This document shows, piece by piece, positions 3,401 to 37,006 of a stretch of 64,000 nt of DNA. The notes below the pieces were generated by a model that had not been told where the DNA came from, did no database searches, and saw only the letters and a list, made by a program, of their open reading frames with translations. Location of the stretch: assembly GCA_002633005.1 (NCBI GenBank), contig NMRA01000022.1:1586485-1650484 (forward strand), read 5' to 3'. Source of the DNA: Phoronis australis (taxonomy: Eukaryota > Animalia > Phoronida). The position numbers and the translations under genes were made by a program. The stretch's first letter is position 1; the number at the start of each line of letters is the position of its first letter.

Positions 3401-6400
3401 CACGATTTATACATTGTGTTTAAATTGTGCCTAATGAGGATATCCGCATAAACTAGTCATTGATAACCTATTAATTACTATATGAAGTTGTTCACATTGT
3501 TATGGAATTCCGGATATTATTGACCAGCAATTATCAAATTATAAAAATTCGTACTTATTGGCAGCGTCGTGGATATGTGCCGCTGCCTGCTCCACCAACA
3601 ATGACGAGAACTGTAACAGCAGGATACGCACAGCGTCCGACGTGCCGAACGGATTGTCTGGGTCGATGACCTTATTGATGAATACGCTGATCACATTGTC
3701 AGAGTTATCCTGGTCAGGAGCGGGTGGGCCACCAATCACGCGCTCACCCTCGCCACGTTCGAAGGATACTTGGAAGCACGGGATGAGGATACACTGAAGG
3801 ATCTGAGAAAAGAGTGCTAACACTGTATGCTATGCCCTACAATAACCATCTTTAACTGATAGTGGGTAGATCTGAGAAGAGAGGGCGAACACTGTATGTC
3901 ACATCCTAGAATTGCACTCTTCGGAATGAGAGTCCTTTAGATCTAAGGAAACACATGACGCTGTACTGAACAATGGCCTCCATTGCAACTGTTAACAACA
4001 TTATGATTCCTGGTTTCCACACAAATCACACAAGCCGATCCTTATAGCAAAAATACACGACATACCGGAAAGAGGATGAATGTTCATTGATGTCAGGTAT
4101 TCTGAACACTTCATCGTTACATCCGCTGAAAATTAACCATACCTTGGCTTTGAGTTCCTGGGATTTGCTCTGGTCATGGAATATCTCTACAAACTTGAAA
4201 AAAGATTTTCTTTTCCATTCCACGCTGTACGTCTACAAAGAAAAATATCCACAACCAGCTTTTAAACACTATAGACCAGTAAATATCTAACTCAGGTTTT
4301 GTTTGTCAAAATAAAGGACAATCATGTACTTATAACTTCATTACAGTAGTGCAGCAGGGATCAAAGTATCTGAAGTTTGGTTTTGAATGATACAAACCCA
4401 TAACCACCCATTGATAACTATGCTAGCCTAAGCAGTTGATGACCACTGTCTTGCCACTGTGGCACAAAAAACACTTGTTGATAGAGTCACTTTATACAGT
4501 CACTAAATCAATGTTATACAGACATGGTAATAGAAATTTGACAGTCTGCGTGATCTTAAATTAACACGTCTAGGAGAACCAACCTGTGCTACAGTGTTGT
4601 CCAAAAACTCCTTAACAAACTGAAACTGCGGGATGAATCGACATGTGAAGCAGCGAAGCATTTGAAACAGCAGGTCAATATCATTGGGCTGGTGTCTGCA
4701 ATGAAATGTGTTTTCTTTAAGCAAAAATACAAGTCAACATGTAGAGCCTGGTCTTAGTGAATTTTTTGCAAGCCCAGTCCACTAAAGTAGAGTTTGAGAC
4801 AAACTTCATAACAGTAGATCTAAATCAAAAAATTTTCGGCGACAGAAGGCGGATTTATGGTATTTCACAAAATTGCGAATATGAGCACATCCCTGAATGG
4901 GCCCTTCAGAACAATGTCAGAACTGCACGTCTTTCTGAGATACTAACTCGAAGTAGTTCAGCAGACACTTCATCAACAACTTTGGCTCTTTCCAGTGGGC
5001 AAAGTCTGCGCTGTACTGAAAGGAGAAAGCAGACAAACATCATGAATGCACCTAGTGGGCAAAGTCTGCGCTGTACTGAAAGGAGAAAACAGACAAACAT
5101 CATGAATGCACCTAGTGGGCAAAGTCTGCACTGTACTGAAAGGAGAAAACATCTAGTCTAGCAGCTAGTGAATGGCCCTGAGTGGCTTTCATTTGACAAA
5201 GGTGAAGATGGTTGTGTAGAAGATGCCCTAGACATTAACTACCACTTGGGCAGCTGTCTTCAGTTTAGTGTATTAGTAGTGTGTAGTGTTATCACTATAC
5301 TGCTAATATCTCAAAGAACAGTTTGCTGGATAGTTCTGTGCAGAAATCAAAAATCCTATTGTTATATAGCCTTGTTTTATATTACATTTGTGCAGCGAAG
5401 TCAAATACTACGAAACAGTACATATACAACGTGTATGGCTGAACAAATGATAACCTAAACTATACACAGAATTGGAGAGCTTTTCACAACATTTGCCAAA
5501 CAAACTGAAGCCATATACCTATCCAGAGGACATTGAATTGCACATTAAAGAGTCACTTAACTTACAATTTTCTTATGTTTCTCCTTGAATGGTTCAGACA
5601 CCCATATCTTCAGCAGGTTGACCACAATCTGAGGGTTCTTGGACAGCCACGTTGGTTCAAACTTGGCGAGCACAGCGATGATCTCTATAGACAGGAACTG
5701 TAATTCAGACTTGAACATGGCGCTGCCAGGGCTCGCAGGTCGTACCCCTTGACCCTACAACAGAATTAGCATATTTAGCAGAATATAGTTTGCAGAGTTA
5801 AATGACAATTTTAATTTAACTTCCAAACGACAAGATTTTACAAACTAAACACTTTCAAGACTTAATTAAAACAACAGTGTACATAATCCAGAAAATCTGA
5901 AACTTTAAATCACAAGCACTGGATTCAATAGTTCTTTCATTTTCCACAAAATGCACCTTTGCAGCATTAACGCACATAATCCAAAAATGCAAAATTTCAT
6001 ACAGTCAAGTAGGCGTAATCTTCATCAACAACCAATATTTCTACATTATTAGTATTACACTTAATTAAAAATAATGACAAATAATACTTAACGGTCCCAT
6101 ATTTTCTTAAGATGACTTATTTTCTATCACTACAGAGGGGTCTATTGGCACATCAATCTGAAATTCTAAAATAAACGCTGACGTCTCATGACTCACTTGT
6201 AACTGGCCATAGGTCATTGGCACTAGTCGGCTGGGGTTGTTTTGCAGAACATCCCTGAATGGTTTACCCAGCTCATGTTTTAGTAAGAACTGGAAATACA
6301 GTAAGAACACAGATCAAATCCAGGCCACAAGCAAGGCCTTTATTTAATTGCACTTTAAAATAGAATTGTTACTCGGCCTCCAAAAATATCTGAATGTTGT

Positions 6401-18400: not shown

Positions 18401-21400
18401 TCTTGGTATTAAGGGCCCTGAGTGCATACAAGTTTTACTTTGGATAGCAACCATGATGTTGCATTATTGCACTTCATGTTGACATTGTTGAATGACATCT
18501 TAAAACATTCTAACTTATCCAGTCCATAAGTTTTAAACAAACAGCCCTAGTATACCAATGGAAATTATTATTTGACTAGTTCATCCAATGGTTTCAACTT
18601 CTGATGAATAATCGACCTTGTGCATGTAATTAAACCCTGTGAAAAGCAAACATTAATTACAAATTGGTCCTTAGAAGTCTCCAACACAACAATTAATGGA
18701 ACATTTAAGTTTTCAATTTCTAGACACAAGGAACAAAATATTTGGAAAAAAGTGCTTCTGTGCTCACTTTTCAACAAACTTGTTTAGATTTTGCCTCCAG
18801 CAAATTCCAAATGTGACATAAGATAAACATACTTCTCAACTACTCAAAAAAATTCGCAGATATCAGGATTTTCATGACTGTACAACAAAAAAATCTTTCC
18901 CCTCATTCTGATAGAGTACAAAATTTTCAAGGCAAACTAACACATAACAGCAAGCATCCATCTCATACCTCCTTAAAGCACTCATTTTGAACACTAATCA
19001 AAATAGGAATAATTGTGAACAGGCAGCAAACAGTAAACTAAGAAATCCATTTATGTCCAATATGTCTTAAGCTTTACCTTATCTTCTATCTTGTCAACAT
19101 TGACTGAATTTGACGGAGCTGACGTAGTGGGAGTGGGAGGAGCTAATGATGGTGTGGACACGCTGGGCGTTTTGGGTTCTTCCTTGGCTGGTAAGTCCAC
19201 AGACTTACTATCAGACTTGGAGTCATGCGGTTTACTGGAAGAAGAGGAGACATTCTATTTACGGGATGTAGGCTGAAGTTCTGATGGACTTATTTACTAT
19301 CAAATGCTCAGTGCAACCAGTACGGACACATCACAACAATTAGCCTGGCAAACTATAACAAGTGCAAAGCAAACATGGCGGAAGTCTACTGCAGGCATAA
19401 TACAACAACAGATGTTTTCAAGTATTCATGACGATATTTCACTAAATGTTACTGCATGGAGCCAAACAATCACAAAAGGTCCCACTGTGCATGTTACAGT
19501 ATATCCATGATTCCATGTCCACTCATAGATTGCTACTTCATTCACATCAACAGAGCTTCATACAGAAGTTAGACAAATCAAACACCTAGGCATCATGCCT
19601 GCCAGTATATTGTGTTACACTGCTGTGACTTGATAAGGTGCCTTGGTAAGCTATTACATAGCACAACCAATGATGAGAAAAAATGACTTATAGTGATTTA
19701 GCACTTTATGTTTCTTTGGTGGCCACTGGTGGTCTGGTGATGTTATTAAGAATACGCGAGTACTTCGGAAAAGTCACATTACTGTAAGTCACATTACAGT
19801 TCAGCCATATTACTGTTCTGCCACATTACTGTAAGTCACATTACTGTAAGTCACATTACTGTAAGTCACATTAGTATAAGTCACATTACTGTAAGTCACA
19901 TTACTGTAAGTCACATTACTGTAAGTCACATTACTGTAAGTCACATTACTGTAAGTCACATTACTGTAAGTCACATTACTGTAAGTCACATTACTGTAAG
20001 TCACATTACTGTAAGTCACATTACTGTAAGTCACATTACTCTTAAGTCACATTTACTGCCATCTACATAATATTATGTTCCGCATATTTTACTGTTAGCT
20101 TAACTCAGATTATATACTAGAAAAAGAAAATGTACTTTGCAAAACGTTATGGAGGTGAAATTATTTCACTTTGAGCTAATTGTAAAATTTCGACGTATAT
20201 TCCAAGGTGAATATTCAGCTGATGTGGGGTCTTACTACAGCAATGGTTTTATATCCCGCAAACTTGTAAATTGTTGATTTGCAATATAAGTCTCCCCTGC
20301 TCATAGAAAAACCATCTTTCTGCTTTCATTGGCAATGAATATTTGTGGGACAAGGTGGAGGGCGATCATAATGTTTACATTTTCCCGTGCCTTGACTGGC
20401 TGGAGCTGATAGTTTGATGGACATGATAGAACTGTCTGTTCTGGTGCTTTAACCACTAAATCACTGTGAACCTGTAATGATGCTTACAACAGACTGATCA
20501 ATCACATAAAGGTTCACTCAGTAGGAACCTTCAAGACTCTGATGTAAACATGTTGTGAGGAATAGTCTAGAGAAGGCAGGTCCCATACAAGGTGGTGGTA
20601 AATATGTCCTATCTCTGTGTAACAACACTGCTAATTCCATACCACTTCGTCAGGATGACCGGCAGCTGGTGCTTAGCGATCACTTTGAATTTCAACACAA
20701 ACACTTCTAACATTCGCATCAGCAGTTGTCTCCCCTGCAACATGAAGCACCCTTGTCATATCAAGACTTCAGAGAATTTTAAAGGAATGAAAAAGATAAA
20801 ACATTTGCAATGCGTGAACAATATTTTACTGATAACACATTTGTTTAGTAATTCTCACAAGTTATCACATACAGTGGTTTCTAACATTATTCTTGAAATT
20901 TCAATAATCCTGTTTCATGGAGAAACCAACAATTAAGCCCTCATGATATGAACATTGGGTGTATCAAGATATAACAATCATTTGTCACAGAATGACCAAA
21001 ATGTCCCCCACCCAAATGGAAGAATGCATGGATATTAAAAAAGACGTCAAAGTCTCCAATATTAACTTCCTTTTCATGATATCACGCCAACACTTTCTGT
21101 GGAAAAATAATTTCTCGCTGGGACCTTGAAAATGAGGTCAAGGTCACCAAAATCGACTGGTGTCTGGAAATGCCCCAACTACACTTAAAGATTAACAAAT
21201 GAGATATCGCATCAACATCGTGTGACGTATGTACATTGAGTCACGAATACTGTATCTCTTGCTTCGCGATACCATGCAGCAGGGGACAATCAGAGATAGT
21301 GTACAAAATATAATAACAACTGCACTCAATCACCATCTCACGTTGGTGATATAAATAACTATCTTGAGTACTTGGACTGGGCCACGAGTAGTAATCTATT

Positions 21401-24400: not shown

Positions 24401-27400
24401 TGACTATTCTAATAAAATAACGCGTCACATAAAATTGAAAAACACGTTTTCATGTAATGTAACAAGAGCAACGCAGAGCGTTGAAATGCGCCCACAATTG
24501 CACCGTATATGGTATCCTTCTAGGGTCGTTTATTGGTACCATAAAGTGGCCAGTTGAGGGCATATATGTAGTATGTTGTACTTTGCAAAATGGAAAGGCA
24601 TGGTCATTGTCTACTCAATAGGCTAGGGGCAAAATGTTTGGTCGATAGAGGGGTGGACGCCAAAAAACAGACTCAAAAACAGTAAAAATGGCCACTGGGT
24701 GTCGCAAACTAGGTCGAATCCATCCGAAAACGGGAGGATAGCGTCATCGCACTAATAGGTGCCTACACACAAAATTTCATGAAAATCCGTTAAGGACTTG
24801 TTAAGATACAGACTGAGGTAAACGTAAAAAAATAAAATTGCCACTCGGGGGCACACTGGTAGGCGGATCCGTCCAAAAGTCGTCATCGTCTGTTGTTAAC
24901 ATCATATAAATACACATATTAAATTTCGTAAAGATCCTGCGAACGGTTTAGGAGAAACAGCCATAGGCGCAAAAAAAACTGCCACTAGGAGGCGCCACAG
25001 TAGTCCAAATCGTCTGAAAATCATTGTCAGCTGTCCTCTTTATAGTAAGCACATACATGCCAATTTTCACAATCATCCTTTGAGCGGTTTGGTTGATAGA
25101 GAGGTGGACGCAAAAATAGACTCAAAAATAGTAAAAATGGCCACTAGGTGGCGCAAACTAAGCCGAATCCATCTGAAAACGGGAGGATAGCGTCATCTCA
25201 CTAATAGGTGCCAACATACCAAATTTCATGAAAATTCGTTCAGGACTTTTGAAGATACAAAGGTAAGCGTAAAAAACTAAAATTGCCACTAGGGGGCACA
25301 CCGGTAGTCGGATCCGTCCAAAAGTCGTCATCTTCCGTTGTTAACATCATATAAATATACTTACACAATTTCGTAAAGATCCTGCGAACAGTTTAGGAGA
25401 TACAGCCCTAGGCGCAAAAAAACAAAACTGCCACTAGGAGGCGCCACAGTAGTCAAAATCGTCGGAAAGTCATCGTCAATCATCCTCTACATAGTAAGCA
25501 TATACATGCCAATTTTCACAATCATCCTTTGAGCGGTTTGGTTGATAGAGGGGTGGACGCACAAAAACAGACTCGAAAACACTAAAAATGGCCACTAGGT
25601 GGCGCAAACTATGTCGAATCCATCTGAAAACGGGAGGATAGCGTCATCTCACTAATAGGTGCCTACATACCAAATTTCATGAAAATCCAATAAGGACTTG
25701 TGAAGATACAAAGGTAAGCGTAAAAAAATTAAAATTGCCACTAGGGGGCACACCGGTAGTCGGATCCGTCCAAAAGTCGTCATCTTCCGTTGTTAACATC
25801 ATATAAATATACTTACACANNNNNNNNNNNNNNNNNNNNNNNNNNNNNNNNNNNNNNNNNNNNNNNNNNNNNNNNNNNNNNNNNNNNNNNNNNNNNNNNN
25901 NNNNNNNNNNNNNNNNNNNNNNNNNNNNNNNNNNNNNNNNNNNNNNNNNNNNNNNNNNNNNNNNNNNNNNNNNNNNNNNNNNNNNNNNNNNNNNNNNNNN
26001 NNNNNNNNNNNNNNNNNNNNNNNNNNNNNNNNNNNNNNNNNNNNNNNNNNNNNNNNNNNNNNNNNNNNNNNNNNNNNNNNNNNNNNNNNNNNNNNNNNNN
26101 NNNNNNNNNNNNNNNNNNNNNNNNNNNNNNNNNNNNNNNNNNNNNNNNNNNNNNNNNNNNNNNNNNNNNNNNNNNNNNNNNNNNNNNNNNNNNNNNNNNN
26201 NNNNNNNNNNNNNNNNNNNNNNNNNNNNNNNNNNNNNNNNNNNNNNNNNNNNNNNNNNNNNNNNNNNNNNNNNNNNNNNNNNNNNNNNNNNNNNNNNNNN
26301 NNNNNNNNNNNNNNNNNNNNNNNNNNNNNNNNNNNNNNNNNNNNNNNNNNNNNNNNNNNNNNNNNNNNNNNNNNNNNNNNNNNNNNNNNNNNNNNNNNNN
26401 NNNNNNNNNNNNNNNNNNNNNNNNNNNNNNNNNNNNNNNNNNNNNNNNNNNNNCTTACAACAGGGTGGGGGGTGGGGTGGTTTTGATGATCGGGAGGTAG
26501 AATTTCTCCCTCAACCGAAAAAATGTCCCTCACAGAAGGCACAGGCACCTTTTCCCTCAGATGAACGAGGGCCCTGTATATCACCCTGTATAACTTTGAA
26601 TACAACTATTATCATATATCGCTCCTACTCTGTTACTTTAAGACTAGGCAAGTAAGAAACAGTAAAATCAGAATGTGGCAAAAGTATTCACACAAAATGA
26701 AGATAGGAATTCCTTTATGATGACACATGGGCAGAAATAAAATTCATCGCCAGTGTAACCTTCCCTCATGACCAAGAATGAAAGTGAATTATCAGGAAGT
26801 TAGTAAGGTAAAAAATAAGCCACCCTGTAATTAGAACTTTGGCTGTCGTAATTTTGCTGTTAACAGAAAAAGTAGTCATGATGAAAAACAGTGGTTTGTT
26901 TGGCGATTACTTTCGTCATAGCGATACAATCAATACCAAATTACAAAATCCACACTCTAAAACTAACCGTGATTGGCTGTCCATCGTTATTCTTCTTTTC
27001 TGTCATAATTGTCGTGATCGTGTATGTCGACGATAACATCTCCTCCATGTTAATATCAGAGGGGTCACGAACCTTCTCCTGTGTCCGCGGTTCAAAAATC
27101 TTGGACACGTGATTAGGCAGGTCTTTGTAGATGCTTTTGACAAACTGAAGGAAACTCTGAATCTGACAACGTAGAAAATTGCTCATTATTAGCTAGTTGA
27201 AATATGACGGTTATGCAAATTGCATGATGTGAAAATGTTAGAAAGACACAAAAATCAACACAAAAAATAAGTTTCATAGTAAAAAATTCAAGCACCTTAT
27301 TCTGCCCTTTGGTTGAGATGGTATATTTTGTTAGGCGATACCCAGACACTTATTCAGGGAGTCACACATTGTGGTTAGGCTATACCAGTCCATTAAATTG

Positions 27401-30206
27401 CTTATTCACCATTCACATTTAGTAATACAACCATTACATTAAGCTCAATACTAGAATCAGTTCCCTGAGTCTTGTGTTCCGTAAATGCAAAAACTTGCGA
27501 AAATGTAAGATCACGCAAGTTATTACGAGATATCTCCAAGCATAACAATCGCAGAATTTGATCACACCAAGCTTTAATCGTGAAACTAGTTTGTTTAATG
27601 AACGCAGCTGTGGACCATCAAATTTTACTAAAAATTGACCAAACGGAGTGCTAACTTTAAAGTAAACTTTGATTATCACAATGTGATTGGACAACTTTCG
27701 AGTCAAATTGCCAGTAAAATCTGTTCATCTCAGGCCATGGAGATAATTCACTTTGAAAAGAGTTAACCAATTGTTCATAACGTCAAACTGATGTCATGTA
27801 CCTCAGGGTTCATCTGTGGTCGGTACTGCTTGTGCAACTCAATGATGATACGTAAGCAGACGAGAACATTTTCTTCATTATCCGTCTGCAACAACTTGAA
27901 CATAAGATTGAGCACCTGCTTCACATACGGCTTCAAATGATCATTGGTCGGGATACGGTGGATGATCTCGAGCAGCAGCTTGCGCAGTTGCTGAAAATTC
28001 ACATATTACAGTAAAATGTAAAGTACATAACATTCTCATTTTTATAGTCTCTGCTCACACCTGTGAAGTAAAGTCCTTAATATGAACAAGTGCTGCACAA
28101 TAATTTGAAAAGTTCTGAGCTGAGTTTGAAAGACTTGCTGAGCTTTTTCTGCTTTGCAAGACAAAAATATAACTGTGTAACATACTGGTACATATTTTAT
28201 GATTTTGACAGTCCTAATACTTCAACCAATAGAATACCTTGAACACGATATAAAGAGTGTTCATGAGTAACTTATACGTCTCTGTTTTTAACAACCAACA
28301 CGAAAAACCAGTGTAACTAAATGCCCAAATATTATTTGTTAAGGCCTAGAACCAGCTGGAACACAAAATGTGTTCTCTACAAACAGAAATAAGACTTGAC
28401 AAGACATACTTGAACAGTCTGCTCTGAGATAAATACAGGGTCACCGTCTTGGAGAATTTTAATGAATGAGCGCATCAACTCCTGCAGGAACTGTGGGTAT
28501 TGTGGGGAGGAAACAACAGTCTGAAATGGATAACATAGAGGTGGTACACAGAAGGACGTTAATGGATAACATAGAGGTGCACAGGACATTCAAGGATAAT
28601 TCTATCAAAATGAGTACTTTCTGTTTTACACCATTATACTTTTGTCTTTAAAAACATTAGAAGGATACAATTTGTACAAAAATCTAAAACTTTGGCAGAA
28701 AACTGTCTATTTTTCATAAAACAAAAACCTTTAAACTGGCTATGGTCACATTTTACACTGTTTAAGTGCGTAAATTGTGACTAAAACCAAAATAGCATAA
28801 TCTAGGTATACACACAAAAAGAAACGAAAAATGCTTCCCATGCCAAATGATGTTGTATGGATTTCGCAAGCTATTGTCTGTTCAACTTACGAGATCCATA
28901 CGACGGGCGTAAGCGCATCACATGGTTACTGCCTATGATACACTACCATTGTTTTCCTTTGTTGCGTCTTTGTTGGATATAACAATACAGGTAGCACGGA
29001 TATCGTACCTTGGGCGACCATCAGCGGGTTACCGATAAATGCTTACCATTATCTTTATTATAAGAAAGAAAAACAAAGTGAACAATAGATTACGCCTATC
29101 TACCGATATCTATGCCACGAGCTTGCACCCTAGTTTCCCGTGGGTTCAGACTTGTAACGTATGTATGACAAATGAGTTACTAATTGGATAATTGAAAGCA
29201 ATGAACTATCTTCCAGAACAAACATAACTCATTACCTCAAAGTTCTCACTAAGCTCTTGAGCAGCCTTCTGCTTCTTCTCCACAACTGTAATTGAGTATA
29301 ACACAAATGTTGAATGAACCAGTCAATCTGATTCAGTGAATGGATAAGTCAAATTCATCAAGCTATATTGTAATGATAGTGGAGTAGTCAGATCTTATCA
29401 GCTAGAAAGTCATGGAGACCTGCAGCTCAACTCAGTCAGAGGAGCACAGACCCTCTGGTGTATCCACAGTTAACATCACTCTACCCACAAGATGCTTTCT
29501 AATGTACACTGGCATGAAAAATCCTGAACACAAAAACGGCTGATAATTTAGACAAACTGCAACCAGGGTTTAAAATGCTTTGACCTGTATATGATAAAGC
29601 GTGGGAATTTTGTTTTAGGAGGAATAATCATGAAAAACAAATAATTAGCTTTACATGAAATGAGTAACTTTGTTAAAGGGCTCTAAGACAGATTACAGCA
29701 ATAGGGGTCTCTCAAGGTAATCAAGGCAGAAAGACAAGTATTTCAGCCAATGCTACCTTTAACTACCTTTACTGTAGGTACATAATGTTGCCAAGGGATT
29801 ATCCAAATTGTTATACAAGCTAATAATAAGCTATGAAGCATGATCTAGTTATCAGAAACCTTCAGTGGTTACAGCCAGCTCTTTGCTTGACAACCAAGAC
29901 CTCAACATGTGATCTGTATCTGATCTCAAAGTTTTTGCACCTTAAAAGTGAATGAATGTTTTCTTATCCTTTGACTACAAATAGACATGCAGACCCCTAA
30001 ATTTAAACTTTTAGCAAAAGGGGTGTTCACATTTTCTCTAATAGAAAAACAGAAGAAAACTTTGCATTTAAAGCACTAATCAGAAATGCACTCATCCAGT
30101 CAATGTGATACATACTACCAGGTGAAGGATCAGCAATCAAGGCCACGTAGGACTTGAACGTCTGCAGTTGAGTCGCCACATCCTGCGGACTCATAGGTGG
30201 CGCCAT
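317..30206 (-). CDS. TRRAP: TRRAP (transformation/transcription domain-associated protein, Tra1 orthologue); N-terminal HEAT-repeat half, multi-exon, continues beyond the left edge of the window
   Basis: 46 GT-AG exons join in frame except across the N gap. Peptides are diagnostic of TRRAP/Tra1, e.g. [133 protein letters not shown]. Confidence 0.97.
712..813 (-). CDS. TRRAP: TRRAP exon
   Basis: ag|ATIEHRKLAVDLAEILINWEVQRIKDDAESSMSE|gtacgt. Confidence 0.92.
833..1140 (+). mobile_element. Penelope-like retroelement 3' remnant (GIY-YIG endonuclease C-terminus plus 3' region)
   Basis: 833-955 translates IIILEFNSEELKIRDALHISWCEPNLNRQLAHHRLSLLV*, matching the LKIxEALxIxxxxPxLNxQ tail of PLE GIY-YIG domains. 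A hammerhead-like motif follows. Confidence 0.75.
1035..1085 (+). ncRNA. Degenerate minimal hammerhead ribozyme (Penelope-associated)
   Basis: CTT-CTGATGA-T-GGTGT..ACACC-AAAAC-ATGTC-AAG: core, stem II, palindromic ACATGT stem III and GUC site are present. The conserved GAAA reads AAAA. Confidence 0.65.
1722..1821 (-). CDS. TRRAP: TRRAP exon
   Basis: QLIVRHQKVYYPVRHHLIQHIVNSIQRLGFTPN|gtaagt. Confidence 0.95.
1845..1916 (+). repeat. (AAC)n-type trinucleotide microsatellite, imperfect
   Basis: aacaacaacagcagcaacagtaacagcaacaccaacaac... in a TRRAP intron. Confidence 0.9.
2222..2295 (-). CDS. TRRAP: TRRAP exon
   Basis: GMLTHWTKKIIVEEGHTVVQLVHI|gtaagt. Confidence 0.93.
2597..2704 (-). CDS. TRRAP: TRRAP exon
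   Basis: VFYSLLKAHAVEARSVVRQALEILTPAMPGRMEDGN|gtaagt. Confidence 0.95.
3031..3140 (-). repeat. Four ~30-bp tandem units, each containing a copy of the adjacent splice donor
   Basis: ctacct(g/a)ta at 3042, 3072, 3101 and 3131 (TA(C/T)AG|GTAGG on the minus strand). Confidence 0.8.
3135..3288 (-). CDS. TRRAP: TRRAP exon
   Basis: KQGNKLRRLLTFAWPCLLAKNCVDPATKYHGHLLLSHIIAKFAIHKRIVLQ|gt. Confidence 0.95.
3555..3802 (-). CDS. TRRAP: TRRAP exon
   Basis: ILQCILIPCFQVSFERGEGERVIGGPPAP...AHIHDAAN|gt. Confidence 0.95.
4143..4232 (-). CDS. TRRAP: TRRAP exon
   Basis: TYSVEWKRKSFFKFVEIFHDQSKSQELKAK|gtatgg. Confidence 0.93.
4584..4695 (-). CDS. TRRAP: TRRAP exon
   Basis: HQPNDIDLLFQMLRCFTCRFIPQFQFVKEFLDNTVAQ|gt. 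Confidence 0.93.
4948..5015 (-). CDS. TRRAP: TRRAP exon
   Basis: ag|YSADFAHWKEPKLLMKCLLNYF|gttagt. Confidence 0.92.
4993..5150 (-). repeat. 60-bp tandem triplication spanning a TRRAP splice acceptor
   Basis: agtgggcaaagtctgc(g/a)ctgtactgaaaggagaaa at 4994, 5054 and 5114. Confidence 0.92.
5566..5754 (-). CDS. TRRAP: TRRAP exon
   Basis: GQGVRPASPGSAMFKSELQFLSIEIIAVLAKFEPTWL...FKEKHKKI|gtaagt. Confidence 0.9.
6197..6289 (-). CDS. TRRAP: TRRAP exon
   Basis: FLLKHELGKPFRDVLQNNPSRLVPMTYGQLQ|gtgagt. Confidence 0.9.
6616..6735 (-). CDS. TRRAP: TRRAP exon
   Basis: AGSPFRLPLLKFLVNYPVHTIDMFLCDYNIKDQHWNRTLV|gtcagt. Confidence 0.9.
7095..7214 (-). CDS. TRRAP: TRRAP exon
   Basis: ELKTCAAIINIFHLIPAASQNMAEPLTTLTLKGEKSLLIE|gt. 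Confidence 0.92.
7285..7445. repeat. Degenerate ~30-bp tandem minisatellite
   Basis: About five copies of gaatatttcagcc...cac(a/c)tgta. Confidence 0.65.
7951..8022 (-). CDS. TRRAP: TRRAP exon
   Basis: AHLKKWMDAAVIAQKGGQQKVTGQ|gtgact. Confidence 0.85.
8426..8596 (-). CDS. TRRAP: TRRAP exon
   Basis: FISGFQIDMEQVHTAMRPLLLMLGDYRTL...FNEKLCEQLL|gt. Confidence 0.95.
8987..9108 (-). CDS. TRRAP: TRRAP exon
   Basis: ALAACHYIPQCREKIFSVLYKNLNANNSELQEAAHECMKK|gt. Confidence 0.93.
9310..9580 (+). mobile_element. Old dispersed repeat (MITE-like); related copies at ~12545-12790, ~33735-34050 and inverted at ~46180-46550
   Basis: Shared blocks such as gtcgaaattg..caac..gcaagtc and aacaa(c/t)tagtgg..aggtacaataat, plus termini resembling tacagt(t)agttttcaaa / tttgaaa(a)cta(c/t)t. 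Confidence 0.55.
9605..9786. repeat. Degenerate cacacagcagtact tandem array next to a TRRAP donor
   Basis: About 10 imperfect 15-16-bp units. Confidence 0.75.
9796..9892 (-). CDS. TRRAP: TRRAP exon
   Basis: LLSLCEAEDSVLLKLPCYKSVTNLVPLRKSGL|gtaagt. Confidence 0.93.
10182..10268 (-). CDS. TRRAP: TRRAP exon
   Basis: DGNTFCTTLQPRLFTIDLTIVEHKVFFTE|gt. Confidence 0.94.
10535..10684 (-). CDS. TRRAP: TRRAP exon
   Basis: AMHSLEVVAKTTGKTITEIMEPHRDVLQDMIPPKKHLLRHQPANAQIGLM|gtaagt. Confidence 0.95.
11419..11598 (-). CDS. TRRAP: TRRAP exon
   Basis: VSSGAVDMAKVNLEVMLTMCA...ELVRQVTSTNTLVREQ|gt. Confidence 0.95.
11805..11916 (-). CDS. TRRAP: TRRAP exon
   Basis: CIAIKFLFERMSLLWVLDHQFLFLKALLFVMMDLTGE|gt. 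Confidence 0.95.
12110..12195 (-). CDS. TRRAP: TRRAP exon
   Basis: ASQLPMFEYLVDRMCSLCYERAWYAKLG|gtaaga. Confidence 0.95.
12305..12483 (-). CDS. TRRAP: TRRAP exon
   Basis: PFPVLGDKQSKLHGMDTNVLIDALATIMGHEEKELCKPG...GDKER|gtgagt. Confidence 0.95.
13149..13244 (-). CDS. TRRAP: TRRAP exon
   Basis: AAAIKELRPHVLPYMASMVKHFTMVAIAQQC|gtgagt. Confidence 0.93.
13640..13740 (-). CDS. TRRAP: TRRAP exon
   Basis: FFHGEIPCSNSVQYKTQDQHARKVQEQALTGMF|gtaagt. Confidence 0.9.
13916..14067 (-). CDS. TRRAP: TRRAP exon
   Basis: AIEHALNLLKSSSTESYFRKQSWEVIKCYLV...LFTHS|gt. Confidence 0.93.
14277..14366 (-). CDS. TRRAP: TRRAP exon
   Basis: LTYNEKESVGPCVSLHFQDCKMPIQFPVEK|gt. Confidence 0.92.
14831..15031 (-). CDS. 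TRRAP: TRRAP exon
   Basis: [33 protein letters not shown]...GGGNRKMLREPQK|gt. Confidence 0.96.
15472..15638 (-). CDS. TRRAP: TRRAP exon
   Basis: [55 protein letters not shown]|gt. Confidence 0.96.
16006..16266 (-). CDS. TRRAP: TRRAP exon
   Basis: [22 protein letters not shown]...[11 protein letters not shown]|gt. Confidence 0.96.
16568..16720. repeat. 27-bp tandem repeat derived from donor-proximal intron sequence
   Basis: gtgacccacactacctatga(g/c)tgtact, about 5 copies, next to the donor at 16723. Confidence 0.85.
16724..16913 (-). CDS. TRRAP: TRRAP exon
   Basis: FTMMNALTFKEIFSTTVDYMVERIHNNYALQIVANSFLAN...LEEMG|gtaagt. Confidence 0.96.
17126..17183 (-). CDS. TRRAP: TRRAP exon
   Basis: VQNVRTKEEKEVLEHFAGV|gtaagt. 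Confidence 0.93.
17641..17782 (-). CDS. TRRAP: TRRAP exon
   Basis: ATLVQNKQFHPKETLVFVRLVKYALKALDIFTINITTSGQTYVRPA|gtgagt. Confidence 0.93.
18226..18331 (-). CDS. TRRAP: TRRAP exon
   Basis: AGTYSVADCRSLVRTLVCGVKTITWGTATCKSPNG|gtgagt. Confidence 0.94.
19078..19234 (-). CDS. TRRAP: TRRAP exon (low-complexity Pro/Ser/Thr insertion)
   Basis: KPHDSKSDSKSVDLPAKEEPKTPSVSTPSLAPPTPTTSAPSNSVNVDKIEDK|gt; phases match the neighbouring exons. Confidence 0.85.
19771..20053. repeat. 15-bp minisatellite (gtaagtcacattact)n
   Basis: About 15 near-identical contiguous copies plus 2 upstream copies; source of the spurious (VTYSN)n ORF. Confidence 0.97.
20643..20734 (-). CDS. TRRAP: TRRAP exon
   Basis: GRQLLMRMLEVFVLKFKVIAKHQLPVILTK|gt. 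Confidence 0.94.
20965..21240 (+). mobile_element. Fragment of a non-autonomous interspersed repeat
   Basis: Contains gaccttgaaaatgaggtcaaggtcaccaaaatc, a motif typical of abundant mollusc-type non-autonomous elements. Confidence 0.45.
21427..21631 (-). CDS. TRRAP: TRRAP exon
   Basis: PLAYSTLADLVHHVR...IQTMSCKLLLNLVECISQRSEQDNGN|gtaagt. Confidence 0.95.
21900..21978 (-). CDS. TRRAP: TRRAP exon
   Basis: FAPHIERLFDENTLIGSGWTTYESL|gtaagt. Confidence 0.94.
22941..23079 (-). CDS. TRRAP: TRRAP exon
   Basis: EQVNQHSQQLVKGMLGLLSLCPQEVAHLRKELLIAARHIFPTELRN|gtaagc. Confidence 0.95.
23457..23553 (-). CDS. TRRAP: TRRAP exon
   Basis: QSPSFNKEVFVDFIATQIKTLSFLAYIIKIYQ|gtgagt. Confidence 0.95.
24461..25819 (+). 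mobile_element. Non-autonomous element with internal ~450-bp tandem repeats (Pearl/HINE-like), running into the assembly gap
   Basis: Head AACAAGAGCAAC...GTTGAAATGCGCCCA shared with 49586 and 49757. Equivalent positions recur at 24691, 25140 and 25591 (period about 450). Confidence 0.75.
25820..26453. other. Assembly gap (634 N)
   Basis: Run of N. Confidence 1.
26737..26840 (+). repeat. Dispersed repeat fragment; second copy at ~35858-35960
   Basis: gtaaccttccctcatgac..agaatgaa..gaa.t and taattagaa are shared by both loci. Confidence 0.7.
26968..27162 (-). CDS. TRRAP: TRRAP exon
   Basis: IQSFLQFVKSIYKDLPNHVSKIFEPR...NNDGQPIT|gttagt. Confidence 0.93.
27802..27990 (-). CDS. TRRAP: TRRAP exon
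   Basis: [25 protein letters not shown]...DNEENVLVCLRIIIELHKQYRPQMNPE|gt. Confidence 0.96.
28410..28520 (-). CDS. TRRAP: TRRAP exon
   Basis: TVVSSPQYPQFLQELMRSFIKILQDGDPVFISEQTVQ|gtatgt. Confidence 0.94.
29236..29285 (-). CDS. TRRAP: TRRAP exon
   Basis: ag|(V/I)VEKKQKAAQELSENFE|gtaat. Confidence 0.92.
29382..29486 (-). ncRNA. SCARNA28: Intronic box C/D guide RNA predicted to methylate U2 snRNA U47 (SCARNA28/mgU2-47-like)
   Basis: Terminal stem GGGTAG/CTACTC; C box GTGATGT (29479-29473); putative D' CAGA; internal hairpin; putative C' CCATGAC; guide AGCTGATAAGA (29403-29393) pairing with U2 nt 44-54; D box CTGA (29391-29388). The D+5 position pairs with U47. Confidence 0.8.
30119..30206 (-). 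CDS. TRRAP: TRRAP first coding exon (exon begins 30228)
   Basis: ATG at 30206: MAPPMSPQDVATQLQTFKSYVALIADPSP; acceptor ttcag|30228; exon ends at 30119, or 30116 with the alternative donor. Confidence 0.85.
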
Positions 30207-30914
30207 ATTCAGTTGTTTACACTTTAACCTGAATCAAAAGAGAATGATACAAATCTAAAGAAGATAGCTTCCCAACACTTATTTGTAAAAATTAGATTTT
30301 GGTCGCTCTTTTTTCAAAAAATGTGAGTGAACAAAAAAGTCACATTATTTTGCTGATAAGCAAGGAAAAATGGTAAAAATGTAGCTAAGTAACGAGGCCC
30401 TCATCAAAATGGCTGCCCAGGACTTGTTTGTTTTCACTGAGTACCATTGTTCAGTAAAAACTGGGTCCCAACAGCCATTTTCAAGAAGGACCCGTTTCCT
30501 TGACTATTAATAATACTTGAAGCATGCGTTAGCCAGAGAGCACCTACTTTACAAATTCATCAGAAAACCTGGGATGCATTAGATATCTGCAAAACACTGT
30601 TGCTACATATATTCGCTCACATAACAGAAAACATGGTAGTGTACGCATGCAAGCTCCAAGTACATGTGATTCCGCATGATCTTGTAAAACTTGCTCAAAA
30701 GACAAAACTCAGAAACTTAGTCTTAGAAGTTAGAATTAGCACTCAGCTTTTATCTTGGAAATATTAATACAATATGACTGCTATATCCGACGCAGGGCCA
30801 ACGGATCTTCAAAAATGTGTAATATTCAATGAAATATGATGGAAAATGTGCCAAATGTCCGATATTTCGATGGCTTGACTGTAGCTTATATAAAACTTAT
30901 TTCCCCGACCGCGA

Positions 30915-31198: not shown

Positions 31199-31750
31199 CT
31201 CCCGGCATAAAGATAGATGGTCTCGTTTATCTGGTTCCGGTTCGAATGTGGACGCACTAGTTGTTGTTGCTACGATAATTATCTAAAATAATGTCTCAAA
31301 AGTATGTTAAACGTTGATAATGTCTTGTAGGTGATCTTTTAATTCACATAACCTTTAAGAAGCAGTTGCATTTGTTCACCGTGTTGTGTATTCGGCGTCC
31401 ACAGACATGACTGAGGCAATAGAAATTCAGCCCGAGGGCCCAAGCGGGCATGACCATGGGGTAGTGTTGTTGCTGCAGTAGCGCCAGAAAATGTCATTGT
31501 CTCTATCATGAGGGACTGGAGGGTTCTTCCGTGAAATGTTTAAATGTGAACATCGAACTTTAACCGGCATTTATCGTACCCAAGAAGTATGGTTTGAAAG
31601 TAGCCTTGGCTTGGTGCAAAGCTGTATTTATACTACAGCTTTGCACCATGCGGGTTAAAAACTGGCCAAATAAAATCGGACTCAAAATTAGTGTCATTAA
31701 AAACTAGACTTCACCGTGAGTACATGAAATGATTTACTTATGTTAGAAAA
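31199..31750. promoter_or_regulatory. Probable bidirectional promoter and non-coding first exons of TRRAP (-) and RPP25L (+)
   Basis: Minus-strand donor GAG|gtaaga at 31199/31198. Plus-strand donors AA|gtatgg at 31586 and AA|gtaagc at 31750. Locally CpG-richer; the two genes diverge from here. Confidence 0.55.
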
Positions 31751-32220
31751 GTAAGCATTCTACCGTTATTGTGCTGCTAACGTTGTGGAGCGATCCTATG
31801 TATCGATGTCTTTCGGTGCCATGAAATATAGCATCGCCTATTGGACAGTTTCTTTTTCGTTAATTCTTCAATCTACTGTTCTTCTTCCAAAAGGTTGTGT
31901 CATTGTCACAGAAACCATCGCTACTGGTTTCACGTCGTTACAAGTTTCAATTCCAGCAAACCGAATTTCAGAACAAATTTTGCTTGGCTGCTGCTAAATG
32001 CATTGATTGTAATTTTTTTATGCTTTGAACTGCTTGAACACAAATTTTAAATGTTTCAATGATATGTTTGGATGGTCGCACAGTTTCCTAGGCTGTGGTG
32101 TCCTTGGACACATGATTTTGTTGACCAAATTTGGAAGGTGTGTATTATAGCCAACAATGAGTGTGTTGGCCACACTGCCTCCTCTCCGTACTTGGAGCAT
32201 TGACCATGGTTATATTTCAG

Positions 32221-32366
32221 TGGACCACTATACTAAAGGTGAAGTGAAAGAACTTGAAGATGCTGAGCCACCTTTCCCTTTCATGAGTGAAAAGGTCGTT
32301 CACATGAAGGTCAACTCGGGAAGTAAAATAAGGAATCTCATGGGATTTGCTGTTAAAAAGATGAAG
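32221..32366 (+). CDS. RPP25L: RPP25L exon
   Basis: ttcag|TG GAC CAC TAT ... ATG AAG|gttaat. Confidence 0.9.
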
Positions 32367-35300
32367 GTTAATGAGTTTTAACCATAATATCTGTCCTTGG
32401 TCTCTAGTGCCTATGCATGATTAAACAATTTGCTCGAGTAAGAATTGGTTCTATCTGATTTTCTTCTGGTTTTCTTGCACTAACAACCAGGGCGTGATTC
32501 AAAGGGAAAGGGCAGTTTGGTTAATTTGCAGATTTCGCAGTGTAGATTTTGAAACACCGAGTACAGAAATTTCATTTAACAGTATTGATTTAATCTGCTG
32601 AATTTTAAAATTTTTTAAACTTTTCACTTCTTGGCTTTGATTCAAACTAATTCAAACATTAGCAGACATATTTAGAATTGATAATGTCAGTGGTGTTTGT
32701 TAGATCATGAAAAGCTATTTGATGGCCTATCAGTTAACATGCTGCATATTCATTCTGGTTATACCTGAATACAGGAGGCTGATATCGACCAACTCACCTG
32801 GAACGGTAGTGGCACGGCTGTGACGAAGACAATCACATGTGCTGAGATTATGAAGAGAAAGATAAAAGATCTACACCAAGTCAACAGTATTCACTACAAA
32901 AGGTTTGACATTATTGCCTGCAGTTAATCAGTTTATCTATCTTTTGATTAAGAGATAGCAAACGAAAATGTCTTCATGGAATCATTTTTGTTAATTGTCC
33001 TAGAACAATTCAGTATCAAGGCACCTGGCTCATAGAATGTGAGGGTGTATAATGAGCTGCAGAGATTCGTCTTCATCAAACTTTCTAGTTGTAACATCCT
33101 CCTAGTGTTCCTTTATTGATGAGTGAAACTGAGAATTAGTCACATGTATCTCGACTGGAAACATTTTGCAGGAAGCATAAAAGATGTGAGTGACACTTGA
33201 CTTCCACGATCATTACAAAATGGTTTTACACTATTTTTTCAGGAAAGTACTGAAAGTTCATGAAAACGTAATAGGACAGCCAGTTTAAGACATGCACAAA
33301 ATGGAATTTGTTACCTTTACCTGTACTTGAAGTTTGGGCAAGTGCAACCGGGCTATTATCAAAACTCTGCACTCAATGTATTTCCTCAAAAATGAGTTAT
33401 TTTGGTGCACGGATAACAAAAGTACTATGCACTCTGTACTCTTATTTAGGTGAGTGAGTGTTGTTTGTCTAGCTGTGACTTCCAATCTCAGTGTTGTTTA
33501 TCTGCCTATGACTTCCAATCTCAGTGTTGTTTATCTTGTAACTTTCAACCTCAGTGTTACATTTTCTTTTAATCAGGACTGAAGAATACTGGGATCCCAA
33601 AGAAGAAGGGTTAGACAGGTAGGTGGACGAATTCACTGCAGCTGAATTTGATCTACAAACTAATTTAATTAATTTTGAGTCAGATGTTGGATGTGCCATT
33701 TAATAATAATTTTGTCACATTTAGCTGAAAATACATGAATCTTGCATTAATTTCAGTGCACAAAACCTTGATATCTGTTTCTCTTGTTACATTAGTAAAA
33801 CCAGTTCCAGTTATTGCTCGATCTCAAAAAAATCTTGACAGGTGTTGCAATAGTCGAAGTTGCAATACGTTACCTCGCAAGTCCGTTTTTAAATTACAAA
33901 ACTATCTGCTAGGCATGATAACATCTTGTTAAACACTGACATTAGTTTGACAAAAACGCGAGCTTTTTATTCCTATAAACTGCCAAAAAATCCTGGCAAG
34001 ACAGAATTCTGCTGAAGTTTGTCTGCTATATTTTGAAACTACTGTACACTTGTTTAGTATTTTGTTATAGGCTGAAAGTGAACAGAGATGTGCCTTGTAT
34101 AAGTATCCTACTCTCCAAGACTCCTCTTAGCGAAGCACTGCCAGGGTAAGTAACTATGCACTTTTCTGCACTGTCAGAATATAGTCTGACAGTATTATTA
34201 GTTGTATTGTTCTGTTTTGTTTTGGTATTCAGTTTGATTGGCATGATCCCTGAGTTCAGTACAATGATGATGTAATTTGTTTACTACAGAATAGTATGGA
34301 ACTTTTTAGTAGACTGAGTTCAGTAGTGATGATGTAATTTGTTTACTACAAAATAGTGTGGAACTTTCTAGAAGAGTGAGGTCAGAACAGTGATGATGTA
34401 ATTTGTTTACTACAGTATAGTGTGGAACTTTCTAGAAGACTCTAGCATGACAGTGATTACTGCAGTCCGGAATATTCTAGAGAGTAGTACATGTTTGTAG
34501 AATGGTTGGGTAGATTCTGGAAAGTTCTAGAATGTGCTTGAATTGATGAAAAGTTCCAGAACAATACATTAGGCTATAAATACGCAAGCACAGGTTTCTG
34601 TTAGTCAGATCAAGTCAGTTCAAGAGAAGATCAAGTCAGTTCAAGAAAGTTAATCAGGAGAACTACAGTTGAGTTGCAGTGAAGAGAATCAGCAGTTACA
34701 GCGATAGTCAATAGAGAGCCAGCTATAGAGACAGCAGGTTATTGAATCGACGAGTGTTCATCACAAGTCAAGGCTTCGCAGCACTGGCTGGAGCATAAAC
34801 AGACCTTACGTCGGACGTTTTGTTTGAGTAGGCTTGTGAACGTACGGTCGGGATTAATAAAGGATTAACTCGAACCAGCCTTCAGTCTATCATCGCACCG
34901 AAAGCTATTAGCACCAGTCTGTAACAACCTGCGCCCAACCACACACGGGGAAAAACGTGACATGCACTCATTCACATCGGCACAAGTATACGCTCTATGA
35001 GTAACTGCTTGAATTTAGGACCATTCGTTTTTTACATGTGGCATGCCGTAAAGGGATGTGCTGTGATATGAGCTGAAAAAGAACTTGATAATAAAAATCA
35101 TAATAATTATCAATTATTAACTGTTTTATGTAATTGGTGCCTTTGTTTAATATTCCCTTGACTCATCTACAGTGAGTACCATAATGATAGACCGTGTGAT
35201 ACCATGGTGACCCACTGGAGTAATAGTCTTGAACCTTATAGCTTTGTGGCTCACTGATGTGGTATTTTAAACTATTAAATAATGTCCAATCATATCAGTG

Positions 35301-37006
35301 GGTCTCCTGCCTTGTCTTGTCTTGTTTCTAACTTCAAGTAAATTCATCAGTTTATGGTGAAATAGGAGGAATTATGCAGAGTACTGAATTATTTTTTCCG
35401 TACAATGTAAATTTATTTTACATTACATGCATTAGTTTTTAGGAATAGTTTTTACTTTTGAAATAATTGTTCGGTATTTGGCAACTGAGCTACTGTTGTC
35501 TTTGGCCAGGATCAGGATTGATATACTTTTTCATAGAGAATGGCTGCCATGAGTTAATTTGTGATGATGATTTAAGAGATTCAGTTTAAATGGTGCTGAC
35601 CAGTGACACTAAAACTACTTTATGTGTGTAAGAAAATTCTCGTTACCAGTTTATGTATTTGACTGTGATATCACTTGTACGTTAAATTAAGGTGCGTGTG
35701 TCATATTTGGCTGTGATAACACACACCTTAACTTAACGTACAAAGAGTTCTGCACATGCGCCAGCCACTCAAACTATGGTGCATTACTGTTTACAGTACA
35801 TGCCAAAAGTGTCCAGACAGTGTGTCACGGAATTCCCATCATGATGGCTGAGCAGAAATCAAATTTGTCGTCGGAGTAACCTTCCCTCATGACTGAGAAT
35901 GAAGGGAAATTAACAAGAAACATAGTATAAAGGTGGCTAAGACAATCTTTAATTAGAAATTTACCCCCAAATTAGTTATCACCAAGCATGTTTGCTACTT
36001 AACAGAATCAGCCAACGTGACAGAAAACAGTATTTTGTCTGTCAGTGATAACTTCAGTCAGGTACTGTACATATCACAAGAGTGTATCTTCAATGTTATC
36101 GATGGGCATGTAGTTTTTGTTGTACCTTGGATTGTACGGTAATTTTCCACGTATTTAGCACCAAATGTAATTGGGCAAAATTGTCAGTTTTCCATTTTTC
36201 AAAAGGTGACGACTTTGCTTCACGTAGAGTAGAAACTTGACCAAATGTTGTTTTATGACAACTACACAGTACAAACCATGTTAGTAATAGACTAAACTTT
36301 TCTTAATTTTTATTTTTGTGGGGAAATTTGACAACGTGGAATTTCAGCCATATTGTAAGTTATTATGTGAAGAATTGCCCAGCTGACTACATCATTTGCC
36401 TTTCTTGATGCATTCTTAGACTGTTCACTTATTTGTTATTTTGGAGTCTTGCACTGTGAACTTAATTGCAAAATGTGCTAAAATCCTCAAATAGGGTAAT
36501 TGTTTTTGATGAACTCAAAGATTTCTTTTTTTTCCTATAGTAGGTAGAGTGTATTCGCAAAGTCTAGAAAATTTGTATCCCTTACTTAAAGTATAGTATT
36601 ACATTGTACTGGTTTCAGCTATCAAGCACCAGGCTCATTTGATGCATTTTGGAAAACCGTTGTTGAGAAGGACGTCAAATCATCTAACCAGAGAAGAAAG
36701 CAGAAACAACAGAGTTCCGGCAAAACTGCGATGGACCCTTCAAAAATTGAAGTCAAAAACAATAAAAAGCTGAAAAAAGAAGAGAGAGGTAGTATCAATG
36801 CCAAAGATTCACGTTCAAAAAATCAGAGAAAACAAAAGACTGTTCAGGATGTAGGATGTAAAACTACAGTGACTGAAAGTAAGAGTAACAAAGACTTGGT
36901 ACAACCTGCTTCAAGTGCAGGTGGTGATACTTCTGAACGTAAAGACTATAAGAGAACTGGTATTGATGGAGGGACTGCGCATGAGGGGAGCCTTGTGGAC
37001 AAGTGA
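32221..37006 (+). CDS. RPP25L: Ribonuclease P/MRP subunit p25-like protein (Alba family); 5 coding exons plus the A of a split ATG
   Basis: Exons 32221-32366, 32775-32902, 33577-33618, 34071-34145 and 36619-37006 join in frame: (M)DHYTKGEV...HMKVNSGSKIRNLMGFAVKKMK-EADIDQLTWNGSGTAVTKTITCAEIMKRKIKDLHQ...-TEEYWDPKEEGLDR-LKVNRDVPCISILLSKTPL..PGYQAPG. These are Rpp25 motifs (GSKIRN, GxAVTKTITCAEI, EEYWxP, ILLSKxPL, GYQxP). Confidence 0.92.
32775..32902 (+). CDS. RPP25L: RPP25L exon
   Basis: EADIDQLTWNGSGTAVTKTITCAEIMKRKIKDLHQVNSIHYK. Confidence 0.92.
33478..33558 (+). repeat. ~30-bp tandem triplication just upstream of an RPP25L acceptor
   Basis: (g/a)acttccaatctcagtgttgtttatct, 3 copies. Confidence 0.75.
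33577..33618 (+). CDS. RPP25L: RPP25L exon
   Basis: TEEYWDPKEEGLD|gtaggt. Confidence 0.9.
34071..34145 (+). CDS. RPP25L: RPP25L exon
   Basis: LKVNRDVPCISILLSKTPLSEALP|gtaagt. Confidence 0.92.
34251..34440 (+). repeat. ~62-bp tandem triplication covering the left junction of the LTR-like element
   Basis: tgag(t/g)tcag..tgatgatgtaatttgtttactaca..atagt(a/g)tggaactt, 3 copies. Confidence 0.9.
34361..34582 (+). promoter_or_regulatory. Cluster of heat-shock elements (nGAAn arrays) upstream of a TATA box
   Basis: GAActTTCtaGAA at 34361 and 34425; GAAtaTTCtaGAG at 34470; TTCtgGAAagTTCtaGAAtgTGCttGAA at 34515-34542; TTCcaGAA at 34554; TATAAATA at 34575. Confidence 0.75.
34391..34962 (+). mobile_element. 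Solo-LTR-like element in RPP25L intron
   Basis: TG...CA ends (tgatgatg ... cgtgaca), TATAAATA at 34575, Inr-like TTAGTC/TCAGTT about 26-41 nt downstream, AATAAA at 34856, no ORF. TSD not resolved. Confidence 0.6.
36619..37006 (+). CDS. RPP25L: RPP25L last coding exon (Lys/Arg-rich tail)
   Basis: ag|YQAPGSFDAFWKTVVEK...HEGSLVDK*; AATAAA at 37138. Confidence 0.88.

Follow-up and report, generated by a model that had tools for sequence, protein, structure and literature searches.

A box C/D RNA gene encoded within TRRAP intron 2 of Phoronis australis, a likely lophotrochozoan orthologue of the U2 U47 guide SCARNA28/mgU2-47

Introduction

The human box C/D RNA SCARNA28, also named mgU2-47 or ZL1, lies in intron 2 of TRRAP (PMC4041459; PMC12150615; published work is cited here and below from excerpts of the papers) and is predicted to guide modification of the U2 small nuclear RNA (snRNA) at U47 (PMC4053766). 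Knocking down scaRNA28, scaRNA2 or scaRNA9 in human cells matched methylation loss at U2 sites that include 47U (PMC6412121). The 3′ end of this small Cajal body-specific RNA (scaRNA) is invariant over guide and box D in an alignment of 11 vertebrates, lamprey included, and a GU-repeat wobble stem on a long apical hairpin is needed for vertebrate Cajal-body targeting (PMC4041459). Cajal-body localisation is reported not to be required for guide activity (PMC6298559), and in the excerpts of PMC4053766 and PMC4041459 SCARNA28 is traced to lamprey only. Here a 64,000-nt stretch of the phoronid Phoronis australis (GCA_002633005.1, contig NMRA01000022.1, positions 1,586,485 to 1,650,484), which is termed the window and supplies all coordinates unless another locus is named, is described as carrying in TRRAP intron 2 an intron-encoded box C/D RNA gene that is likely the lophotrochozoan orthologue of SCARNA28/mgU2-47 and a predicted guide for 2′-O-methylation of U2 U47, a reading to which a probability of about 0.9 is given.

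In flies, the intronic box C/D scaRNA mgU2-48 methylates U2 position 48 when assayed in yeast (PMC3884663), and because fly U2 numbering runs one higher, Cm41 being human Cm40 (PMC5733568), this is likely the same site as U47. An invertebrate U2-47 guide as such is hence not new. A literature search that reached few of the subscription papers returned no invertebrate guide hosted by TRRAP, SCARNA28 names are absent from the main-text excerpts of PMC6984369, PMC4914119 and PMC5733568, and the excerpted supplement of PMC11014333 holds no entry for a SCARNA28-type guide.

Results

Architecture of the candidate and its pairing with U2

An earlier note, made from the letters of this DNA, had proposed a U2 methylation guide with terminal stem, boxes C, D′, C′ and D and an internal hairpin between 29382 and 29486, ending about 95 nt before the 3′ splice site. 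All of these elements are present on the minus strand (Table 1), and the distance to the splice site is 96 nt from the end of the stem and 102 nt from the end of box D. Box C agrees with RUGAUGA at six of seven bases and is separated by a single A from the GGGTAG arm of a 6-bp terminal stem, box D is CTGA, and the antisense element before it has a length within the 10–21 nt of the class and sets a target at its fifth base when aligned with U2 genes, which came from species other than that of the window. A second guide to U2, before box D′, was not found in the candidate RNA, and no further canonical C/D element with a strict 5-bp stem was found in the window.

On all 16 full-length U2 genes the guide forms 11 contiguous pairs with nt 44–54, and no stretch of the whole RNA matches U2 better than this 11-mer at nt 44. 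Opposite the fifth base before box D stands U47, as the note had claimed, or U48 in the two U2 genes that have one extra 5′ base. The note had further described one of the 11 pairs as G-U. The pairing holds, and that pair is probably G-C instead, because position 53 is C in 11 of the 19 U2 genes confirmed by Rfam (from 20 loci tested) and U in the other 8; with C53 the duplex is fully Watson-Crick and duplexfold gives −16.1, against −13.7. A literature search for the C53-type U2 string returned only one unrelated paper. A U2 motif scan of prokaryote assemblies gave 57 loci (L079–L135), mostly eukaryotic contaminants: many prokaryote genome assemblies hold eukaryotic U2 genes, often in tandem with 5S or U1, which is host contamination. 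The one match to the U2 motif in viral contigs was rejected as U2 by Rfam.

The 14-mer made up of guide and box D occurs once in the window even if one mismatch is allowed (0.08 expected), exact matches expected in the 830-nt intron number 4.7e-6, and the same 14 nt end the SCARNA28 locus of a fish contig (L054), where they are identical. A profile built from eight other loci, with the window excluded, scores the candidate at 32.3 bits (E 3.9e-9), with a runner-up in the window at 8.7 bits and motif matches outside the training set at 24.7 bits at most; the profile is of sequence only and shares the search motif by construction, and these scores are hence partly circular. At the gathering threshold, Rfam has zero matches in the whole window. 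A permissive scan of 28500–30500 gave six weak matches, among which the lowest E value (0.12) belongs to sno_ZL1 (RF02723), spanning 29381–29489 on the minus strand. The fish copy likewise lies under the RF02723 gathering score (25.9 bits, E 0.018).

Table 1. Features of the candidate guide RNA and of its host intron in the window
Feature	Position	Strand	Remarks
Predicted box C/D guide RNA	29382..29486	-	92 nt from box C to box D, ~105 nt with terminal stem
Terminal stem, 5′ arm GGGTAG	29481..29486	-	paired with 29387-29382 in minimum free energy (MFE) and centroid folds
Box C GTGATGT	29473..29479	-	seventh base T against consensus A; that base also varies in related loci
Candidate box D′ CAGA	29454..29457	-	putative, assigned by position; upstream conserved guide not seen
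Predicted internal hairpin, D′ to C′	29415..29453	-	stability not above shuffles; GU repeat absent
Box C′ region CCATGAC (C′-like ATGA 29413-29410)	29409..29415	-	spacing to guide equals that of human mgU2-47 and bivalve-like L004
Guide AGCTGATAAGA, 11-nt antisense element to U2 nt 44-54	29393..29403	-	fifth base before box D faces U47
Spacer T between guide and box D	29392	-	
Box D CTGA	29388..29391	-	
Terminal stem, 3′ arm CTACTC	29382..29387	-	paired in MFE and centroid folds
TRRAP intron 2, host intron, 830 nt, GT-AG, phase 1	29286..30115	-	splice joint, 7 RNA reads, 2 of 3 runs
TRRAP exon 2, first coding, ATG at 30206, 91 coding nt	30116..30228	-	5′ edge ~30228, uncertain by up to 4 nt
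TRRAP exon 3, 50 nt	29236..29285	-	3′ edge from sequence; equal length in L004 and L054

The host intron

Splicing was read from raw RNA reads of three runs deposited under the same species label. The joint 29285|30116 (GT-AG) is crossed by seven reads from two of the three runs, and the joint 30225|31065 (GT-AG) by six reads across all three, which places an exon upstream of the one with the ATG. The surrounding exons have human TRRAP as their top PDB match (E 8e-27), and Pfam Tra1_central was found in two of the four tested. TRRAP exon 2 alone had zero matches among PDB sequences, and a homologue search with the 62-aa exon also gave zero. Among 120 full-length TRRAP proteins, those closest to the window exons are from a nemertean, an annelid and gastropods (73–75%), and in a FastTree analysis of 26 rows (24 of the 120 proteins, the window and the contig locus L018; no brachiopod, phoronid or vertebrate) the sister of the window TRRAP is Owenia (97), and both fall in a clade of lophotrochozoans (100).

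Exon 4, which follows the 50-nt exon, begins at the residue aligned with residue 51 of human TRRAP, a human TRRAP minigene has its intron from base 101, i.e., after base 100 (PMC12150615), and in the fish locus coding exons of 100 and 50 nt flank the same phase-1 intron. By this alignment and exon layout, the host intron is orthologous to TRRAP intron 2, the human SCARNA28 intron, and the candidate lies in it in the sense orientation. Since the D-box guide to U2 U47 and the conserved 3′ end are found there as well, orthology of the RNA itself with SCARNA28 is likely. The earlier note, which had named an early TRRAP intron as the vertebrate host, was right: the host is TRRAP and the second intron, with its phase and the length of the next exon as in fish. 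Six haplotype differences were seen in intron 2 and none within the 105-nt guide RNA, where about 0.8 would be expected, so that their absence there carries no information.

Relatives in other animals

One scan of metagenome contigs with a C′-guide-D motif, which permitted only A or G at guide position −11, gave 77 loci, not all independent; it has no bearing on an extra TRRAP copy in corals or in other animals with a host other than TRRAP. The same motif had 0 matches in viral contigs. A box C-like RTGATGN 60–200 nt upstream was present in 20 of the 77, and most of the 77 are chance matches. TRRAP exons were recognised by tblastn on four (L004, L054, L018, L001), each with the guide in a sense intron and a box C. 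L004 is bivalve-like (TRRAP exons 81–84% to Mya and Mercenaria) and carries the guide in intron 2, phase 1, before a 50-nt exon, with 25 of 32 bases at the 3′ end identical to the candidate; L054, read as fish from its vertebrate-type TRRAP sequence, also has it in intron 2. The distance from box D to the 3′ splice site is 102 nt in the window, 82 nt in the bivalve-like locus and 95 nt in the fish. RNAalifold over the related loci returned zero consensus pairs.

L018 clusters with acariform mites in the FastTree analysis, and the top TRRAP matches of L001 are chelicerates. In both, the intron-2 site is read through, the intron being absent, and the guide is in an intron after residue ~147 (1432–1605 in L018, where this is the only intron across the ~2,100 codons covered; after 803 in L001). 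Elsewhere the guide has other hosts. Six loci (L010, L013 at 4490–4570, L027, L039, L069 and L077), whose named relatives are stony corals, have it in an intron of NUDC, with a terminal stem of 10 bp; in L036 it is in a PUF60 intron, in L044 in a USO1-like gene (weak Pfam match), and in two distant animals (L049, 1467–1556; L048, 2991–3015) in RALGAPB, apparently in the same intron. Because the coral-like NUDC loci carry the U2-47 guide, the guide family appears, from these contigs, to be older than bilaterians. The termite-like loci L019, L021, L033 and L066 together with L060, L009 and L071 were not counted as homologues, as no host gene was seen; L019, L021, L033, L066 and L060 also have no canonical box C within 200 nt. 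The four termite-like loci share a conserved non-coding stretch that ends in guide and box D, with A at −11.

Guide position −11 is G in the window, L004, L001, L018, the six coral loci, L036, L044, L048 and L049, and A in all 11 published vertebrates and in L054. Human U2 has U53, according to fragments of the supplement of PMC6412121. Together with the C or U found at position 53 of the U2 genes, this suggests covariation of guide −11 with U2 53 (G with C53, A with U53), as seen between guides and U2 genes from unmatched donors.

Discussion

Comparison with known guides

Like human SCARNA28, the candidate is a box C/D RNA with a single D-box guide to U2 U47, in sense orientation near the 3′ end of TRRAP intron 2, and the two share their last 14 nt (guide core and box D) and the 8-nt spacing from the C′ TGA to the guide. 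They differ in that the candidate has G rather than A at −11, 11 rather than 12 pairs, and a box C ending in T. Vertebrate SCARNA28 is 137–207 nt in full length (11 vertebrates), whereas the candidate measures 92 nt from box C to box D, and the GU/UG-repeat stem of the vertebrate RNA is absent from it: TG/GT steps per 30 nt are at most 9, against 17 in the fish locus, and the longest TG run is 2, which puts it outside the vertebrate GU-repeat scaRNAs. The label scaRNA is therefore not established, the RNA being about half the vertebrate length and without the GU-repeat Cajal-body element. Fly mgU2-48, with which it is compared by target site and by Cajal body box (CAB) motif, has a CAB-like motif and binds WDR79; the extended fly CAB consensus cgaGUUAnUg (excerpted from PMC4041459) is not matched by the candidate, where the nearest sequence is GAGTTGAGC. 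With canonical intronic box C/D small nucleolar RNAs (snoRNAs) it shares a length of ~90–100 nt, a terminal stem, boxes C/D and C′/D′, the rule that the fifth base before box D marks the target, and a place near the intron 3′ end; those RNAs target rRNA, whereas its own predicted target is a spliceosomal snRNA made by RNA polymerase II. The candidate is a real box C/D gene and a short variant of a known guide, outside both the GU-repeat scaRNA class and the RF02723 threshold.

On known C/D biology, the guide would be transcribed together with TRRAP and, once the intron is spliced out and debranched, trimmed free by exonucleases. 15.5K/Snu13, NOP56, NOP58 and fibrillarin would bind the kink-turn made by boxes C and D, the guide would pair with U2 nt 44–54, and the U2 ribose opposite the fifth base before box D would be methylated by fibrillarin. 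Because there is a single guide and no GU wobble stem, the likely site of action of the RNA would be the nucleoplasm or nucleolus, unless it used another targeting signal. This mechanism is not new, and the candidate extends a known system.

Alternative explanations

Several observations weigh against a functional U2 U47 guide in the window. Coverage of the guide amounts to about one read pair from a single run, a pair that maps antisense to the mRNA reads and comes from libraries prone to lose RNAs of ~100 nt; the seventh base of box C departs from the consensus; the overall fold is no better than that of shuffled sequences (z −0.19; internal hairpin z −0.33); the sno_ZL1 match scores 18.4 bits and so stays under the RF02723 gathering score of 64; and the target search was confined to U2. 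That the motif is a chance occurrence in an intron, or belongs to a C/D RNA with another real target, could draw on the last point and on the preponderance of chance matches among the 77 contig loci, yet the 4.7e-6 exact 14-mer matches expected in the intron, the conservation of the element in the orthologous intron, and the fact that the best U2 match of the whole RNA is the very 11-mer at nt 44 make this a negligible prospect.

A relic, i.e., a true orthologous locus that is no longer expressed or active while another copy does the job, would account for the non-consensus box C and for the lack of reads from the mature RNA, and the presence of the guide in other host genes elsewhere shows that replacement copies do arise. 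Yet the seventh base of box C is A, G, C or T among related loci, and the stem, box D, the C′ spacing and the full 11-base guide have been preserved although the internal part diverges widely from the bivalve-like copy, so that decay appears improbable. Nor is it probable, to a shade lesser degree still, that a functional guide was inserted into TRRAP intron 2 on separate occasions in lophotrochozoans and in vertebrates and that the pairing of host and guide is not ancestral. The family is mobile, with NUDC as host in corals, PUF60, USO1 and RALGAPB in others and another TRRAP intron in the chelicerate-like loci, but the window's animal, the bivalve-like animal and the fish share the gene, the intron and a similar distance to the 3′ splice site, the guide is also in TRRAP in two ecdysozoan loci, and a single ancestral insertion is far simpler.

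Age and significance

With the SCARNA28 orthologue preferred for the window, the residence of the guide in TRRAP is likely older than the divergence between vertebrates and the molluscs and worms. The earlier note had suggested a bilaterian age for it, and the bivalve-like animal with the guide in the same intron supports this. Taken jointly, the loci lean, with modest confidence, towards a wider account: the U2-U47 guide would be ancient, as in corals, and would have been in TRRAP intron 2 before the protostome-deuterostome split; it would have stayed loyal to its host gene, having moved to a TRRAP intron further downstream in those chelicerates whose intron 2 was lost; its −11 base would covary with U2 53; and the short form without GU repeat would be ancestral, the GU repeat bound by TDP-43/WDR79 being a vertebrate addition.

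For a class of RNA known to be mobile, the retention of one host intron in vertebrates, the worm of the window and a bivalve clearly exemplifies deep positional conservation, and the chelicerate-like loci suggest selection for residence in TRRAP even after loss of the intron. The short form is a natural experiment on whether U2 methylation depends on the GU-repeat Cajal-body signal. Since Rfam misses this copy, such guides are absent from invertebrate annotations.

Other features of the window

A high-copy repeat occupies 28840–29130 in TRRAP intron 3, where DNA depth is 860–1640 against ~9 nearby. Further TRRAP introns hold a 634-nt assembly gap (25820–26453) and a tandem repeat of 15-nt units (19813–20046). 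A second gene lies head-to-head with TRRAP on the plus strand (31250–37000, start ~31250), with exons that we presume to be Alba/RPP25-like from their appearance.

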